Positions 1 through 6,342 of a stretch of 57,904 bases of DNA are shown here, piece by piece. Made by a program: the position numbers and the translations under genes. Source of the DNA: an uncultured Candidatus Saccharibacteria bacterium. GTDB taxonomy: Bacteria; Patescibacteriota; Minisyncoccia; Portnoybacterales; UBA2143. Within the stretch, counting starts at the first letter, position 1, and each line of letters starts with the position of its first letter. The notes beneath the pieces were generated by a model, which worked only from the letters and a program-made list of their open reading frames with translations, searched no databases and had not been told where the DNA came from. The stretch is from positions 1 through 57,904 of the forward strand of contig CAYYLD010000003.1 of NCBI GenBank assembly GCA_964472495.1. Direction: 5' to 3'.

Positions 1-73
1 GCGCCCGTAGCTCAATGGATAGAGCGCCACGCTTCGGACGTGGAAGTTGCGTGTTCGAATCATGCCGGGCGCG
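1..73 (+). tRNA. tRNA-Arg (anticodon TCG)
   Basis: Cloverleaf: acceptor GCGCCCG/CGGGCGC, anticodon arm CCACG-CTTCGGA-CGTGG, T-loop TTCGAAT; no encoded CCA. Confidence 0.93.
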
Positions 74-77
74 CCCG

Positions 78-151
78 GCGCCGTTAGCTCAGCCAGGTAG
101 AGCAGTTGGCTCTTAACCAATTGGTCGGGGGTTCGATTCCCTCACGGCGCA
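78..151 (+). tRNA. tRNA-Lys (anticodon CTT)
   Basis: Acceptor GCGCCGT/ACGGCGC, anticodon arm GTTGG-CTCTTAA-CCAAT, T-loop TTCGATT. Confidence 0.93.
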
Positions 152-196
152 CCCAAGGTGGCTCAGTGCTTGGACGCAGAGAAGGTCCGGACTTGA

Positions 197-228
197 CAAG
201 ATAACCCAATAGGGTTATCTTGCTTTTT
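197..228 (+). terminator. Intrinsic terminator after the tRNA pair
   Basis: Perfect 11-bp stem CAAGATAACCC/GGGTTATCTTG followed by CTTTTT. Confidence 0.75.
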
Positions 229-340
229 AGCTGTTTGAAAATTGAATAAAGAGGCTTAAACTCGAGAATCTATATTTTTAGGAAATGTCAGTTTATAAAA
301 TTAGACCCAAAACAAGTATAGACAAGAAAGGATAAAGATT

Positions 341-748
341 ATGGAATTAAACCGCAAAAAAAATATTTTGGTATTCATTTTTCTTTTTCTCCTGATTTTT
401 ACGACATCTCTACTTGGTTGCCATAAACAACAAGCAAATAAACAAGTAGACGGTTTGGAAATTCAATCAACTGGAGAAGAGAGAAATTATACAGCTGAAC
501 AGGTTCTGGTAAAATTTCAGGAAGAGGCCAGTAAACAAGCTATAAGTAATATCCAGGGAACCTTGAAGCTAAAGACGATAAGAGTAATTTCTCAGCCCAA
601 AAACCTTTATTTAATGGAAATTCTGACTGGAGATTCAGTGGAAGAAGTGATAGAACAATTACAAAAATGTCCAGAAGTACTCCAGGCAGAGCTAAACTAT
701 ATTGTCAATATTAACCAGAAAGAAAGGAGGTTAGACGAACAAGATTGA
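341..748 (+). CDS. Putative lipoprotein consisting of a stand-alone subtilase-propeptide-like domain
   Basis: Basic N-terminus, hydrophobic stretch and lipobox LLGC; YTAEQVLVKF...SVEE...PEVLQAELNY parallels the prodomain of the adjacent protease (YKAGQVLVKY...SVEE...PNVVYAEPNY). Confidence 0.7.
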   Translation: MELNRKKNILVFIFLFLLIFTTSLLGCHKQQANKQVDGLEIQSTGEERNYTAEQVLVKFQEEASKQAISNIQGTLKLKTIRVISQPKNLYLMEILTGDSVEEVIEQLQKCPEVLQAELNYIVNINQKERRLDEQD

Positions 749-898
749 TTACTGCTTGATGAGACCGTGAGACCGTTCTAAATGGGCTAACCCGGCTTCT
801 GACTGGTATCAGCTTTTGTTGGGTGCCTGAACAAGTTGTTTGGTAAGTAACTTAACTGTTATTTAAAGTAAGTTCAGATGACTGAGAAAGGAGACGAG

Positions 899-3082
899 AT
901 GAAAAAGATAAAGATTTTTGTTGGCGTGTTTCTGGTCGTAGCCCTTATCTTCATAGGGGTACCTACCTTTGCGGGGACAACCGATGGCCAGATTGAATTT
1001 GGTGACCAGGTTGTCAGTCCGGATTACAAGGCCGGCCAGGTGTTGGTTAAATACCGGGCTCCAGTTCGGGCCGCGGCGACCAGATATTTTCGTGAAGAAT
1101 ATGCTATTAATACCATTAAGACCCTTAAAAGTGGAATCCAATTGGTCAAGCTACCTCCTGAACTAAGCGTGGAAGAGGCCCTGGTAGTTTATGACAGGAG
1201 TCCAAATGTAGTCTATGCCGAGCCGAATTATCGTTATTTTGCAGAGGTCATCCCTAATGATCCTGGTTTTCCCAAGTTATGGGGACTGCATAACACTGGC
1301 CAGAAAGTAAACGGGACGACTGGCGCGGCCGATGCCGATATGGACCTTCCTGAGGCCTGGGGTATATGTTCTCAATGTACTGGCAGTCAGACAGTCATCG
1401 GCGCTGTTTTAGATACGGGGATTGATTATAACCATCCTGATTTATCAGGGAATATCTGGATTAACCCGGGAGAAATACCTGGCAATGGCCTTGATGATGA
1501 TAATAACGGATATATTGACGATGTTCGGGGGTGGGATTTTGTTGACACTGATAATGACTCCATGGATTACATGGGGCACGGTACTCACGTGGCCGGCACA
1601 GCGGCCGCAGAAGGAAATAATGCTTATGGTTTAAGCGGAGTTTGCTGGAAGGCCAAAATTATTCCTCTTAGAGTATTGGATGCTAGTGGCAGCGGATATA
1701 CTTCGGATATTATTGAAGCGGTTGAATACGCTAATGCTCTTCAGGTTCAGCTGACAGCTATGAATATGAGTTTTGGCGGCGGTGGCTTTAGTCAGTTTCT
1801 TAAAGAGGCCATTGAGGCCTCTTCGGCGGTAGTGGTGTGCTCAGCTGGAAATTCTGCTGATGACAATGACACTATTCCTCATTACCCGTCCAGTTATAAT
1901 TGCCCTAATATCATAGCTGTGGCCGCTACAGACCAAGACGATGAGCTGGCTGCATTCTCAGATTACGGAACGGTCAGCGTGGACCTGGCTGGACCAGGAG
2001 TGAATATTTACAGCGCTATTCCGTCGAGAGCTGTCATCTGGAGTGACGATTTTGATGATGGGAATATGTCCGGCTGGACCACAGGCGGCACTAACAATAC
2101 CTGGGGAATTACTAGTAGCGAATTTTACAGCCCTGCCTATTCGCTTACAGACAGTCCGGTTGGGAATTATCAGAACAATACTAATTCCTGGGCCAGAATT
2201 GGTCCCCTTGACTTTTCTACAGATACTGGTATAAAAGTTAGATTTCAGATCAAGGGAATATGCGAGTATCATTGGGATAAATTGTACATTGAGGCCTCTG
2301 ATGATTTGTTAAATTGGTCTGGAGTATGGCTCACCGGTTCGTCCGCTGGAATGTGGCTTCATATAGATGTAGACTCTACAGATTTTGACGGTGAGTCCGC
2401 CGTCTATTTCAGATTCCGCTTGTCCACTAATTCCTCTATTACCGAAGATGGCTTCTACATTGATGATGTGGCGCTCACCGCCCATTCAGACATTTTTGAT
2501 GGCGATGAATACGCTTTCAATAGCGGTACGTCAATGGCGACCCCACACTTGTTGGGTCTTTGCTTACTGACTCGAGCGTTTGATCCAGATTTAAGCAACC
2601 TGGAGATAAAGGAAGCCATAGAAGGTAATGTGGATGTTATACCGTCTTTAGCCGGCAAGGTGGCTACTAACGGAAGAGCCAATGCTTTTAAGACTATTCT
2701 TTCTTTAGTGAAGGCGCCTATTGCAACTACGGGTGACGCTACTTCAGTGACTGCCAACTCGGCTGTTCTTAATGGTACGGTCAACCCCAATAACAGCAAA
2801 GTGGAGGCCGCTTATTACTTTGAATATGGTCTGACTACCGGTTATAGTTCAAGTACAGCTGAAGCAGAGATTGGCTCAGGGACGAATGGAGTGGCAGTCA
2901 GCGCTAATCTTGCCGGACTGAATCCAGGGACGACCTATCATTTCCGACTGGTCGCCAGAAATGACAAAGGAGCAAGCTATGGTCATGACCAAAGCTTGAC
3001 CACTCTGCCTTCTTCGGTTGGAGGCGGAGGCGGAGGCGGAGGCGGAGGCGGATGCTTTATTAACACGGCATCTGACAGATAA
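899..3082 (+). CDS. Secreted S8 (subtilisin-family) serine protease with prodomain, inserted beta-rich domain, FN3-like domain and poly-Gly/GCFI tail
   Basis: Catalytic motifs VLDTG, HGTHVAG, SAGN and GTSMATPH; signal peptide; start moved to ATG 899 behind an AAAGGAG Shine-Dalgarno. Confidence 0.92.
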   Translation: MKKIKIFVGVFLVVALIFIGVPTFAGTTDGQIEFGDQVVSPDYKAGQVLVKYRAPVRAAATRYFREEYAINTIKTLKSGIQLVKLPPELSVEEALVVYDRSPNVVYAEPNYRYFAEVIPNDPGFPKLWGLHNTGQKVNGTTGAADADMDLPEAWGICSQCTGSQTVIGAVLDTGIDYNHPDLSGNIWINPGEIPGNGLDDDNNGYIDDVRGWDFVDTDNDSMDYMGHGTHVAGTAAAEGNNAYGLSGVCWKAKIIPLRVLDASGSGYTSDIIEAVEYANALQVQLTAMNMSFGGGGFSQFLKEAIEASSAVVVCSAGNSADDNDTIPHYPSSYNCPNIIAVAATDQDDELAAFSDYGTVSVDLAGPGVNIYSAIPSRAVIWSDDFDDGNMSGWTTGGTNNTWGITSSEFYSPAYSLTDSPVGNYQNNTNSWARIGPLDFSTDTGIKVRFQIKGICEYHWDKLYIEASDDLLNWSGVWLTGSSAGMWLHIDVDSTDFDGESAVYFRFRLSTNSSITEDGFYIDDVALTAHSDIFDGDEYAFNSGTSMATPHLLGLCLLTRAFDPDLSNLEIKEAIEGNVDVIPSLAGKVATNGRANAFKTILSLVKAPIATTGDATSVTANSAVLNGTVNPNNSKVEAAYYFEYGLTTGYSSSTAEAEIGSGTNGVAVSANLAGLNPGTTYHFRLVARNDKGASYGHDQSLTTLPSSVGGGGGGGGGGGCFINTASDR

Positions 3083-3184
3083 ATGAGTTGCTTTGGTGGC
3101 TTTGCTTTTTCTGCGGTGGGCTTAATTGGCTTAAAGTCAGGATTTACCTGCCCGATGTTGCTTCTTCAAAAAATGTGAGGAAGG

Positions 3185-3218
3185 ACCGCCCGGTCAAAAT
3201 TAACTGGACGGTTTTTTT
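3185..3218 (+). terminator. Intrinsic terminator after the protease
   Basis: Imperfect stem ACCGCCCGG/CTGGACGGT plus T7. Confidence 0.55.
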
Positions 3219-3297
3219 CTTTTTCTTTTTTCTGTTTTCTGTGATTTTTGTTTTCCCCAGTTGCCTTTTTTTATTTTTCTTGTTAGAATAAATTTAA

Positions 3298-3324
3298 AGA
3301 TTCTTCACTTCGTTCAGAATGACA
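3298..3324. repeat. Half of a REP-like element (AGATTCTTCACTTCGTTCAGAATGACA)
   Basis: Resembles, from recall, the GATTCTTCGCTTCGCTCAGAATGAC arm of a widespread REP-like repeat; partner arm not visible. Confidence 0.4.
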
Positions 3325-3329
3325 ATAAT

Positions 3330-3596
3330 ATGCTAAACCCAACTAAAAAATCCAAGGTGATTAAAGAGTATAAAACCCACGATAAAGATACTGGCTCGGC
3401 CGAAGTCCAGATTGCTATTTTCACCAAGCAGATTGAGGAATTAGCTAAACATCTTAAAAAACATCCCAAGGACAATCATTCCCGCCGGGGTCTTTTAAAA
3501 ATGGTTTCCAAACGAAAGCGGCTGTTGGATTATTTAAAGGAAGAAGACGAGAAGCGCTATAAGAAGATAGTTAAAAAATTGGGATTAAAAAAATGA
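3330..3596 (+). CDS. rpsO: 30S ribosomal protein S15
   Basis: [25 protein letters not shown]; start at ATG 3330. Confidence 0.97.
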
Positions 3597-4099
3597 GTAT
3601 TATCAAACATAAAGAACAACGGGTAGCCGTTTTGATTGACGCGCAAAACATGTATCATTCAGCCAAGAATCTTTACAGGGCCAGGGTGAATTTTAAAGAG
3701 ATTTTGAATACGGCTGTCTCCGGCCGAAAACTGGTTCGGGCCATTGCTTATGTCATTAAGACCGAAAGCGGCGAAGAAAAGAGTTTTTTTGAGGCGTTGA
3801 CCAAATCCAGCATTGAGACAAGAGTTAAAGACCTTCAAATATTTTACGGCGGTTTGAAAAAAGCTGACTGGGACGTTGGCCTGACCGTTGACGCGGTCAA
3901 GTTGTCTGCTCAATTGGATGCCATTGTTCTGGTAACCGGTGACGGAGATTTTTTGCCTTTGGTTGAATACCTGAAAGGACAGGGCCGCCAGGTAGAAGTA
4001 ATTGCTTTTTCTAAAAGCGCTTCGGCCAAGCTAACCGAAGCGGCTGACGATTTTATTGATTTAAGCGAAAATAAAGATAAGTATTTGTTGAAAAAATAA
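3593..4099 (+). CDS. NYN-domain (LabA/DUF88) PIN-like protein
   Basis: [14 protein letters not shown] and GDGDF motifs; ATGA overlap with rpsO stop region. Confidence 0.9.
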
Positions 4100-4107
4100 T
4101 TAATTAG

Positions 4108-4225
4108 GCGCTCTTTAGTTGGTTTTGGTCTCGTTTTTTTCGTTTAGGTTTTTATCCGAATTGTCAATTGATAATTTGGACAGAAACCTGCACGAAAGCC
4201 GATATCAATATTGGCTGGAGGGCGC
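4108..4225 (+). promoter_or_regulatory. Long irregular RNA hairpin in the pnp 5' leader
   Basis: Nested complementarity with many G-U pairs (GCGCTCTTTAGTTGGT/ATTGGCTGGAGGGCGC; TTTCGT/ACGAAA; AGGTTT/AAACCT; TCCGAATT/AATTTGGA); the stem includes the GGAGG SD. Confidence 0.65.
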
Positions 4226-4233
4226 TCGAACTT

Positions 4234-6342
4234 ATGAGTTCCAAACAATTTAAGATTGATTGGGCCGGCCGGGAATTAAAGGTAGAAATCGGCCATTTGG
4301 CTCAACAGGCCAATGGGGCGGTTTTACTTTCTTACGGCCAGACAACCGTTTTGGCCACGGCGGTCATGGACGAGAAGCCCCGCCAGGTTGATTATCTGCC
4401 TCTAACGGTTGATTACGAGGAAAAACTTTACGCGGCTGGCAAGATTAAAAGCGGCCGTTTTCTCAAAAGAGAAGGCCGGGCTTCCGACGAGGCCGTTTTG
4501 ACCGGCCGAATGGTTGACCGGGTTATCCGACCTAACTTTAATCAGAAAATTAGAAACGACCTTCAGGTTATTTTGACGGTTCTTTCATTTGATAAAGAGA
4601 ACGACCCGGATGTTCCGGCTTTGTTGGCCGCTTCTTTGGCTTTGGGCGTTTCTAATATCCCCTGGGACGGGCCGATAGCCGGTCTGCGGATAGGTCGGAC
4701 TACTGAGAATAAAGAAGAATGGCTTTTAAATCCGACTTATCAAGGCCGGGAGAAAAGCGATTTTGATTTGGTTATTGCCGGCAAAAAAGATAAGATTAAC
4801 ATGTTGGAAGGAGGGGCTAATCAGCTGCCCGAAGAAGTTTTGCTGTCAGCTATTGAATTTGCTCAGCCGCATCTTAAAGAAATTATTCAGTGGCAGAAAA
4901 AAATCATTGAAGGGGTTAATCCGGCCAAAGCCGTTTTAGCGACGGCCGAAGCGCCGGCTGAATTAGTTAAAAAAGTTAAGGAGAAAATAGGCGATCGCTT
5001 GGAAAAAGCTCTTTATCAGCCGGGCAAGTCAGAACGATTGGAAGGACTGGGCGTTATCAAAAAAGAGTTAATTGAAGGTTTGGCTCCGGAATCAGAGGAG
5101 GAAACCAATCAAATTGAAGAAATTTTTGAGGAAGAAATTAACCGGATTGTCCATCAGAATATTTTGAAAGCCGCTTCTGGTCAGGAGAAAAGACCTGATG
5201 GCCGTAAGTTAGACGAAGTCCGCTCAATTAAAACACAGGTTGGTCTTTTGGCTCGGACCCACGGCTCAGGTTTATTTGAACGAGGCGAGACCCAAGCTCT
5301 TTCGATAGTCACCTTAGGAGCGCCCGGCGATGAACAGACTATTGAAGGTATGGAAGTTGAGGAGAAAAAGGGTTTTTTCCACCATTACAATTTCCCGCCT
5401 TATTGCACTGGCGAGACCGGCCGCTTAGGCGGCCCGGGCCGTCGGGAAATCGGTCACGGTGCTTTGGCTGAGAGAGCCCTCTTGTCTTTGATTCCTTCCA
5501 AGGAAGAATTCCCCTATACTATTCGCTTGGTTTCAGAAATTCTTTCTTCCAATGGTTCTTCCTCAATGGCTTCGGTCAGCGGTTCTAGTTTAGCCCTGAT
5601 GGATGCCGGCGTGCCCATTAAAAACCACATCAGCGGTATCGCTATGGGCTTAATGATGGAATCGGTTGATAACTATCGTATCTTGACCGATATTCAGGGA
5701 CCGGAAGACCATCATGGCGATATGGACTGCAAGATTGCCGGAACTGAACTGGGGGTGACGGCTTGCCAAATGGATGTTAAAATAGAAGGAGTTACTTTAG
5801 AGATTCTTAAAAAAGTTTTTGCCCAGGCCAAAGAAGCCCGTTTGCACATTCTGAAGGAAATGACTAAGACGATTAGTCAGCCAAAAGAAGATCTTTCGCC
5901 TTTGGCGCCGCGCATCCTTACTCTTAGAATTAATCCGGAAAGAATTAGGGATGTTATCGGACCGGGCGGCAAAGTGATTAACGAAATAACCGGAGAGACC
6001 GGAGTTAAAATTGACATTGAAGACGATGGTTTGGTCAATATTACTTCAACTGACGAAGCGGCTGGTCAAAAAGCCCTGGAATGGGTTAAGAATTTGACTC
6101 GCGAAGTCAAAGTCGGTGAGATTTTTCAAGGCCGGGTGACTAAAATTACTGATTTTGGCGCTTTCGTTGAGATTCTGCCTGGTCAGGAAGGCCTGCTCCA
6201 TATCTCTGAACTGGCTCCTTACCGGGTTCGCCGGGTTGAAGACATCGTTAGAACCGGCCAAATGATTCCGGTCAAAGTAAAAAAGATTGATGAGCAGGGC
6301 CGGATTGGTCTATCAATGAATAAAATTAAAAAGGATAAATAA
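4234..6342 (+). CDS. pnp: Polyribonucleotide nucleotidyltransferase (PNPase)
   Basis: Two RNase PH domains (RREIGHGALAE, SNGSSSMAS, GDMDCK) plus KH and S1 domains; start at ATG 4234. Confidence 0.97.
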   Translation: MSSKQFKIDWAGRELKVEIGHLAQQANGAVLLSYGQTTVLATAVMDEKPRQVDYLPLTVDYEEKLYAAGKIKSGRFLKREGRASDEAVLTGRMVDRVIRPNFNQKIRNDLQVILTVLSFDKENDPDVPALLAASLALGVSNIPWDGPIAGLRIGRTTENKEEWLLNPTYQGREKSDFDLVIAGKKDKINMLEGGANQLPEEVLLSAIEFAQPHLKEIIQWQKKIIEGVNPAKAVLATAEAPAELVKKVKEKIGDRLEKALYQPGKSERLEGLGVIKKELIEGLAPESEEETNQIEEIFEEEINRIVHQNILKAASGQEKRPDGRKLDEVRSIKTQVGLLARTHGSGLFERGETQALSIVTLGAPGDEQTIEGMEVEEKKGFFHHYNFPPYCTGETGRLGGPGRREIGHGALAERALLSLIPSKEEFPYTIRLVSEILSSNGSSSMASVSGSSLALMDAGVPIKNHISGIAMGLMMESVDNYRILTDIQGPEDHHGDMDCKIAGTELGVTACQMDVKIEGVTLEILKKVFAQAKEARLHILKEMTKTISQPKEDLSPLAPRILTLRINPERIRDVIGPGGKVINEITGETGVKIDIEDDGLVNITSTDEAAGQKALEWVKNLTREVKVGEIFQGRVTKITDFGAFVEILPGQEGLLHISELAPYRVRRVEDIVRTGQMIPVKVKKIDEQGRIGLSMNKIKKDK

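Follow-up and report, generated by a model that had tools for sequence, protein, structure and literature searches.

A propeptide-like lipoprotein gene beside an S8 protease gene

Two adjacent genes, a small one for a predicted lipoprotein and a large one for a secreted S8 protease, lie near the start of contig CAYYLD010000003.1 from an uncultured Candidatus Saccharibacteria bacterium (Table 1). The window, meaning the whole 57,904-nucleotide stretch of this contig that was analysed, has a sequence that is present in many salt-marsh metagenomes. The small protein matches the Pfam family PF22148 (Fervidolysin_NPro-like) over residues 41-119 (E 2.6e-9, 37.8 bits against a cut-off of 21), as does the prodomain of the protease over its residues 47-117 (E 7.2e-11). 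The small protein and the N-terminus of the protease are 26% identical over 115 residues by BLASTP (E 3e-6), an alignment that covers the motifs from which an earlier note had judged the two to be homologs. Both genes were found where that note had placed them, and the BLASTP match and the presence of PF22148 in both proteins, which go well beyond chance, bear out the relationship. A six-frame scan identified only these two copies of PF22148 and a single S8 gene in the window. The small protein ends at residue 135, separate from the S8 catalytic domain, which is unlike the usual arrangement of PF22148 in the same polypeptide as the protease.

No match of the small protein of the window to Inhibitor_I9 (PF05922) was obtained in Pfam at E values up to 1, and NCBIfam gave no meaningful match by which it could be named. 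Its sequence returned noise from the PDB (TAL-effector repeats, E >0.02); a profile of its family reached fervidolysin (1r6v) only at E 0.48.

The N-terminus of the small protein, MELNRKKNILVFIFLFLLIFTTSLLGC, has a Lys/Arg-rich start, a hydrophobic core and a lipobox, and Cys27 (419-421) is predicted to be the lipidated first residue of the mature protein. The tether that follows (residues 28-48) is probably flexible. The two genes are an operon-like module on one strand; no terminator-like site was seen in a sequence scan of the spacer between them, and the hairpin that follows the protease gene is the probable end of the bicistronic unit. Upstream, the sigma-70-like matches that make up the candidate promoter come from a consensus scan in which the number of matches was not above the shuffled expectation.

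Predicted fold and C-terminal register

A profile of five orthologs, searched against 1.84 billion cluster representatives at E ≤ 1e-3, matched 362 of them. Among the best 150 of the 362, there are 142 proteins of 60-220 residues (mode ~130) with the domain at the extreme C-terminus, and seven long proteins. A second search with 70 diverse members gave 446 proteins at E ≤ 1e-5; the 120 listed all have PF22148 and are 74-216 residues long, and those to which a source gives a name are called 'hypothetical protein' or are evidently mis-annotated. All 70 aligned members match PF22148, and one of them matches Inhibitor_I9 weakly (E 0.0044). The family consensus is a signal peptide with a lipobox Cys, a tether and a domain of the form Y.PGEILVKFK...NLYLMKI..G.SVE..I..L....EV.YAEPNY. 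A strict PS51257-like lipobox pattern is present in 168 of 227 members, with several others being near misses, and the LVKF motif with which the domain opens lies a median of 42 residues after the Cys. Some free-standing members of 207-236 residues contain two tandem propeptide-like domains (L028 at 3123-3830, P0034, P0065 and P0112). One member matches the Pfam family ORF_2_N, the N-terminal domain of the external chaperone of the Aeromonas protease ASP, weakly (E 0.0012), which hints that the Aeromonas chaperone may also be propeptide-like.

An AlphaFold2 (AF2) model of the small protein, made from an input alignment of five orthologous sequences, has a helical signal peptide, a low-confidence tether (residues 26-50) and a strand-helix-strand-strand-helix-strand domain, in which the predicted local distance difference test score (pLDDT) averages 84-91 per ten-residue block over residues 51-120. 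Foldseek, run against the PDB, gave as top matches of the model the furin-bound prodomain of PC1/3 (9fid), prosubtilisin (3cnq_P, 3whi) and the prosegment of subtilisin BPN' (1spb_P), with template modelling scores of 0.64-0.71 normalised to the target and root-mean-square deviations of 1.8-2.5 Å. The domain is thus modelled as the subtilase-propeptide alpha/beta fold. The earlier note had suggested comparing the protein by profile or structure with fervidolysin-type prodomains, and both comparisons agree with it: PF22148 scores above its threshold and the top Foldseek matches are subtilase and convertase prodomains.

The point at which these proteins end is strict. Among the 235 short members with the AEPNY motif, the C-terminus lies exactly 5 residues past the motif in 139, and 5-7 residues past it in 200. 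The BPN' prosegment ends in ...PSVAYVEEDHVAHAY, its last residue being P1 of the autoprocessing site, and this end aligns without gaps to the ...PEV.YAEPNY plus five residues of the family. The invariant E117 and the nearly invariant N119 align with Glu69 and Asp71 of BPN', which cap two catalytic-domain helices in the BPN' complex (PMC6993865). The closest solved relative of the protease of the window is the catalytic domain of deseasin MCP-01 (3vv3, E 4e-77). The first residue of mature deseasin aligns with E116 of the protease. In the BPN' register E116 is P1, and the cis prodomain would be cut after RYFAE, no more than one residue from the start of the deseasin chain. The processing site of the protease is therefore predicted at approximately A115/E116, before VIPNDP. 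Because the C-terminal register matches both the BPN' P1 and the mature N-terminus of deseasin, the free-standing proteins appear to be shaped like propeptides that have already been cleaved, with a C-terminal strand that would fit the non-primed subsites. It is via these subsites that cleaved propeptides and the eukaryotic stand-alone inhibitors block subtilases (PMC10580911; PMC6993865; bioRxiv 10.64898/2026.05.05.722857).

An inhibitory or controlling role is best supported, since the C-terminus is at the P1 position and the helix-capping Glu and Asn are conserved. The probability that the small lipoprotein is a tethered, product-like inhibitor of its cognate protease at the cell surface is put at roughly 0.6. 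Trans inhibition of a subtilase by its cognate propeptide is known (PMC10580911), potent inhibition of subtilases has been described for stand-alone proteins that resemble propeptides (PMC6993865; bioRxiv 10.64898/2026.05.05.722857), and in Tannerella small lipoprotein inhibitors, the potempins, whose genes are immediately upstream of those for secreted proteases, guard the cell surface (PMC9890683).

As such an inhibitor, the small protein would be exported, acylated at Cys27 and held by its tether on the outer face of the cytoplasmic membrane, where it would bind the catalytic domain of the neighbour-encoded protease in the manner of a propeptide. The sheet would pack on two surface helices, capped by Glu117 and Asn119, and the C-terminal strand would occupy the S4-S1 subsites, resulting in tight, product-like competitive inhibition. 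A protease that had shed its own propeptide near the cell would be kept latent or harmless, and the envelope of the producer would be spared by the surface-associated protease until its release or until it was needed. With the small gene upstream, the inhibitor would be made first, as with the potempins (PMC9890683).

Gene linkage and descent

One genome per species (GTDB) was scanned with a 14-sequence alignment, which returned 80 loci. In 57 of these (56, and L039 on inspection) the domain serves an S8 protease as its cis prodomain, and in 23 it is free-standing. For 22 of the 23 free-standing copies, the next same-strand open reading frame (ORF) downstream also contains the domain. In phmmer searches with the catalytic domain of the protease of the window, 21 of these 22 partners were recognised as S8 proteases; the 22nd (L026) is divergent, yet has D-S-G, H-G-T and G-T-S motifs. 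There is one orphan (L034). Three further distant members on metagenome contigs all have the pair (3/3), among otherwise unrelated genes. The distance between paired genes is often 1-16 nt, or they overlap. The hosts are Desulfobacterota (several orders), Nitrospirota, Gammaproteobacteria, Chloroflexota, two Candidatus Saccharibacteria and two methanogen or anaerobic methanotrophic (ANME) archaea; the two Candidatus Saccharibacteria genomes are the closest relatives of the window. The two-gene module that was proposed in the earlier note, in which a lipobox-containing propeptide homolog precedes an S8 protease that retains a propeptide, is therefore real, and the neighbourhood survey called for there finds it conserved among species representatives and metagenome contigs alike.

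A neighbour-joining tree was built from the free-standing domains, the prodomains of their partners (cognate prodomains) and cis-only prodomains. Most of the free-standing copies, that of the window among them, group in one clade apart from all prodomains. The cognate prodomains form a clade of their own with a similar branching order. Distances among the free-standing copies correlate with those among their partners (Mantel r 0.83, a value reached in 0 of 5000 permutations), although this mainly reflects shared descent and is by itself no proof of physical co-evolution. The tree fits one old duplication, inherited with the protease. Separate younger duplications are seen at L036, L066 and the archaeal L072 and L073. 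At the two archaeal loci (L072 4899-5354 and L073 3253-3798; Methanobacteriota, Methanophagales), the free-standing ORFs run into a degenerate start of the catalytic domain, and these look like recent partial duplications rather than members of the old free-standing clade. Horizontal acquisition by the Saccharibacteria is plausible, since their copies nest among, and next to, those of Desulfobacterota.

The strict linkage to one protease gene in unrelated contexts, the co-divergence and the single orphan among 23 copies make it very improbable that the small protein is directed at foreign subtilases, such as those of competitors, hosts or predators, rather than at the neighbouring enzyme. This is so even though Potempin A also inhibits a host protease (PMC9890683) and some propeptides inhibit heterologous subtilases (PMC6993865).

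Selection and lineage-specific changes

Four orthologs of the small gene were identified in a word-indexed search. They are 64-69% identical to it and 116-127 residues long, all with PF22148, a signal peptide and the lipobox Cys. The gene order on every ortholog contig is the small gene, the S8 protease, rpsO, an NYN-domain gene and pnp. The small gene is under purifying selection, with pairwise ratios of non-synonymous to synonymous substitution (dN/dS) of 0.22-0.57, mostly ~0.3. This is the level of the signal peptide and prodomain of the protease (0.25-0.37) and somewhat higher than that of the whole protease (0.20-0.27).

The copy in the window differs from its orthologs at its 3' end. The ancestral stop, TAG in L005, L007 and L008 or TAA in L001, has become CAG at 719-721, so that the reading frame runs over the old ribosome-binding site for another 11 codons. 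In the window and in L001, its closest relative, inserted DNA of ~150-190 nt with a second ribosome-binding site also separates the genes, where the spacer is 16 nt in the other orthologs. The stop loss, the spacer and the Pro-to-Leu change described below lie in sequence that is identical in four independent metagenome assemblies, and are thus not assembly errors. The long C-terminal tail is an outlier, common to 2 of the 235 family members. As a mobile repeat or a protease pseudogene remnant, the spacer was rejected: it has no second copy in the window and matches L001 alone. It was likewise rejected as a structured RNA (folding z-score -0.44).

Could the small gene be what is left, without function, of a protease gene that was duplicated and is decaying? 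In the window copy the ancestral stop is gone and a near-invariant Pro has changed, and the archaeal L072 and L073 look like recent partial duplicates with a remnant of the catalytic N-terminus. This explanation is nevertheless hardly tenable and already largely refuted. The ORF, signal peptide and lipobox are intact in five lineages with dN/dS well below 1, there are hundreds of fixed-length free-standing relatives, and neither pseudogene nor protease-like remnants were found in the spacer. A decayed fragment, which the earlier note had named as the finding that would overturn its proposal, is not what lies at this locus.

Inhibitor or folding helper

Some of the evidence weighs against the inhibitor interpretation. 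The AF2 model is derived from five sequences and the Foldseek E values are weak, from 2.7e-3, because the fold is small, common and ferredoxin-like. In the window copy, the near-invariant Pro of AEPNY is Leu (AELNY), the C-terminus reaches ~10-11 residues past the P1 position, and its branch has the highest dN/dS (0.57). For these three reasons the window's own copy could be weakened. Its extension crosses the position of the scissile bond, and the protease may first trim this extension, or the binding in this lineage may be looser. Lastly, binding in the propeptide mode would also suit a folding chaperone.

A trans-acting foldase or maturation factor, which would aid the folding of the protease at the membrane rather than restrain it, is the main rival to the inhibitor, though an unlikely one. 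Besides inhibiting, subtilase propeptides serve as intramolecular chaperones (PMC10580911; PMC6993865), and the yeast and Pleurotus stand-alone inhibitors have also been reported as chaperones of their cognate proteases (bioRxiv 10.64898/2026.05.05.722857). The lactococcal protease PrtP depends on the maturation protein PrtM (PMC7783315), and the weak ORF_2_N match in one family member and the upstream position of the gene would both be compatible with such a role. However, every partner protease examined keeps its cis prodomain, so that a second folding template looks redundant, whereas the ASP-type external chaperones serve proteases without a propeptide. The strict, product-mimicking C-terminal length is also a requirement of an inhibitor.

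The protease, its C-terminus and other features

The protease most likely starts at the ATG at 899, not 878, because the ribosome-binding site GAAAGGAG is 6 nt upstream of it and the orthologs begin with MKK or MRK there. The catalytic residues D172, H227, N318 (oxyanion) and S545 are present and in order. The insert in the catalytic domain, between the region of the oxyanion Asn and the catalytic Ser, has sub-threshold matches to InhA-like_MAM (E 0.0068) and CBM_4_9 (E 0.029). The Pfam matches of the fibronectin type III-like domain, to fn3 (E 3e-4) and Pur_ac_phosph_N (E 8.9e-5), are also sub-threshold, and the L001 ortholog, at 629 residues, is without this domain.

The protease ends in 11 Gly followed by CFINTASDR, which resembles the CFI-box putative sorting motifs of NCBIfam (NF041763 / NF041770) and scores 14.9 bits for NF041763 against a cut-off of 15.9. 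The orthologs have runs of 8-11 Gly, one of them interrupted, and keep the CFI ending. In relatives from other phyla, the CFI motif is followed by a membrane helix and a basic tail, both of which are absent in the lineage of the window, and the protease of L028 has the longer CFI_box_CTERM domain (E 5e-28). These proteases appear to be cell-surface enzymes, on the basis of their CFI-box-type C-termini and the helix and basic tail, or CFI_box_CTERM, in relatives.

Within loci L010-L093, a sample that is not phylogenetically independent, a CFI-box-type C-terminus is commoner among proteases paired with a free-standing copy (11-13 of 18) than among unpaired ones (11 of 54). Many Nitrospira S8 proteases without a free-standing partner (L022, L023, L031, L032 and many more) end instead in GGGGC-T[LV]APGATGD, a membrane helix and RRR, which looks like a different Gly-Cys C-terminal sorting signal. 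In the window alone, an in-frame hydrophobic stretch, MSCFGGFAFSAVGLIGLK, follows the TAA stop of the protease and is not conserved in the orthologs; the poly-Gly run, the CFI ending and this stretch together lie within 3020-3136. Stop read-through and a truncating nonsense mutation were both rejected as explanations of the C-terminus, the orthologs all ending in CFINT[AV]SD[RQ] without a downstream hydrophobic segment.

It is speculated that in the window lineage the lipoprotein may be the sole means of surface retention, because the protease has lost its own C-terminal anchor. Taken further, the small protein would be mainly a surface tether that replaces this anchor, with inhibition being partial or incidental. 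In keeping with this, the lipoprotein has a flexible tether, and the Saccharibacteria-lineage proteases stop at the CFI motif, lacking the helix and basic tail of their relatives. Most partner proteases in other phyla keep both a C-terminal anchor and the lipoprotein, though, and binding in the propeptide mode would necessarily block the active site, so that retention as the main role is improbable. An elaboration of the inhibitor that is similarly doubtful is one in which the anchored copy captures the protease after it has lost its propeptide and stores it as latent enzyme on the surface. Active enzyme would then be set free locally upon a trigger, for instance when another protease degrades the lipoprotein or when a partner or prey cell is contacted. 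In the Saccharibacteria, the lost protease anchor and a cleavable extension across the scissile bond would make this a contact-site activation switch for an episymbiont.

Downstream of the module (3261-6342), the genes rpsO, NYN-domain (LabA-like) and pnp follow, the position of the NYN gene between rpsO and pnp being an unusual fixed arrangement.

Table 1. Features of the lipoprotein-protease module and its flanks, by nucleotide position in the window.
Feature	Position	Strand	Basis
Opening of the window: tRNA-Arg(TCG) and tRNA-Lys(CTT) genes	1-153		
Two overlapping sigma-70-like promoter matches, candidate operon promoter	193-262	+	Consensus scan
Terminator-like hairpin after the tRNA genes	197-222		
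Gene for free-standing propeptide-like lipoprotein of 135 residues, positions including the stop codon	341-748	+	ORF, PF22148, orthologs, dN/dS
Predicted lipoprotein signal peptide, lipobox L-L-G-C	341-421	+	Cys invariant in 5 orthologs
Tether between lipid anchor and domain, residues 28-48	422-484	+	pLDDT <50 over residues 26-50
Propeptide-like domain of the small protein, to the P1-equivalent position	485-712	+	AF2, Foldseek, tail-length statistics, BPN' prosegment
C-terminal extension of 11 residues, QKERRLDEQD and the preceding residue	713-745	+	Ortholog DNA alignment
Inter-gene spacer, 150 nt	749-898	+	GAAAGGAG ribosome-binding site at 886-893
S8 pre-pro-protease, 727 residues	899-3082	+	Peptidase_S8, E 4.9e-48
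Predicted protease signal peptide, residues 1-25, ...PTFA|G	899-973	+	Inferred from sequence
Protease's own cis Fervidolysin_NPro-like prodomain, residues 38-116	1010-1246	+	PF22148
Insert of ~160 residues within the catalytic domain	2030-2503	+	Split Pfam S8 match
Fibronectin type III-like domain	2747-2977	+	Sub-threshold Pfam matches
Poly-Gly linker (GGA GGC)n, then CFINTASDR, CFI-box-type putative sorting motif	3020-3079	+	
Terminator-like hairpin and T-run after the protease gene	3190-3215	+	Conserved in orthologs

Comparison with known systems

By fold and probable mode of action, the small protein is closest to the stand-alone propeptide-like subtilase inhibitors of MEROPS family I9 and their mimics, which include yeast PBI2, Pleurotus POIA1, Arabidopsis SPI-1, Toxoplasma MIC5 (TgMIC5), Plasmodium SUB1-ProM and Trichoderma TrI9. 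Like these it is a small, independent gene product with a propeptide fold, its target protease would keep a propeptide of its own, its C-terminal segment is expected in the active-site cleft, and it has helix-capping acidic or amide residues. SUB1-ProM is also encoded beside its target genes (PMC6993865; bioRxiv 10.64898/2026.05.05.722857). The characterised examples that were found are, however, all eukaryotic and soluble, whereas the small protein is prokaryotic, has a lipoprotein signal and tether, belongs to an operon-like pair and matches PF22148 instead of Inhibitor_I9.

In its gene layout and cellular logic, the module most resembles the system of potempins and KLIKK peptidases in Tannerella forsythia. 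The potempins are lipoproteins of 98-132 residues whose genes lie immediately upstream of, and are co-transcribed with, those for secreted prodomain-bearing proteases (PMC9890683). The KLIKK peptidases include the S8 enzyme mirolase, and the potempins inhibit their linked proteases one-to-one and protect the cell surface (PMC9890683). In the window, too, a small lipoprotein gene immediately precedes, on the same strand, the gene for a secreted prodomain-bearing protease; the spacer without a terminator-like site also fits this layout. The potempins differ from the small protein in being beta-barrels (OB-fold or eight-stranded) whose loops enter the cleft, in having no relationship to the propeptide and in being known from one species (PMC9890683). 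The small protein, by contrast, is a paralog of its protease's own propeptide and occurs across many phyla.

A further comparison is with Streptococcus pyogenes, where the inhibitor Spi resembles the propeptide of the protease SpeB. The pair is given in PMC1298937 (reference 28) as a protease with an endogenous inhibitor encoded beside it. It differs in its protease, which belongs to the cysteine proteases (C10), and in its inhibitor, which is cytoplasmic and no lipoprotein.

There are also accessory proteins that act as helpers of subtilases, among them the lactococcal lipoprotein PrtM. PrtM, Treponema PrcB, Aeromonas ORF2 and Myxococcus PopD are encoded beside subtilase genes (PMC7783315, PMC8167434, PMC6434023) and are similar to the small protein in that they control the maturation, stability or release of a subtilase, PrcB being a lipoprotein. 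None of them is documented in the cited papers as a propeptide homolog. PrtM is a prolyl isomerase and PopD acts in the cytoplasm. Aeromonas ORF2 serves a propeptide-less protease, whereas the protease of the window and all partners examined carry a PF22148 prodomain.

Significance

The interpretation offered in the earlier note, of a two-gene module that resembles an effector-immunity pair and would be relevant to an episymbiont in contact with a host, is supported as regards the conserved module but not as regards any particular relevance to episymbiosis. The majority of members are in Desulfobacterota, Nitrospirota, Gammaproteobacteria, Chloroflexota and archaea, mostly lineages not known as episymbionts, and the scan found only two species representatives in Saccharibacteria. 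A tie to host contact is not supported, and the module by itself says nothing specific about episymbiosis. The comparison to effector-immunity pairs is overstated, as self-protection or control of the latency of a surface protease would suffice.

Protein inhibitors of proteases have been described as sparse in prokaryotes (PMC6993865), and the literature searched contains only a few characterised stand-alone subtilase inhibitors of the propeptide-like kind, all of them eukaryotic. The literature search found no paper describing this prokaryotic family, which is limited evidence of absence. Here a propeptide fold, a predicted lipid anchor and a fixed operon partner come together in a large prokaryotic family, named just 'hypothetical protein'. 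If its members do inhibit their partners, this would mean that on at least three independent occasions the duplication of a prodomain gave rise to a separate regulator, and the family would be a ready source of specific inhibitors of a group of environmental S8 proteases. It would also explain how many bacteria shield their own envelope from cell-surface subtilases.

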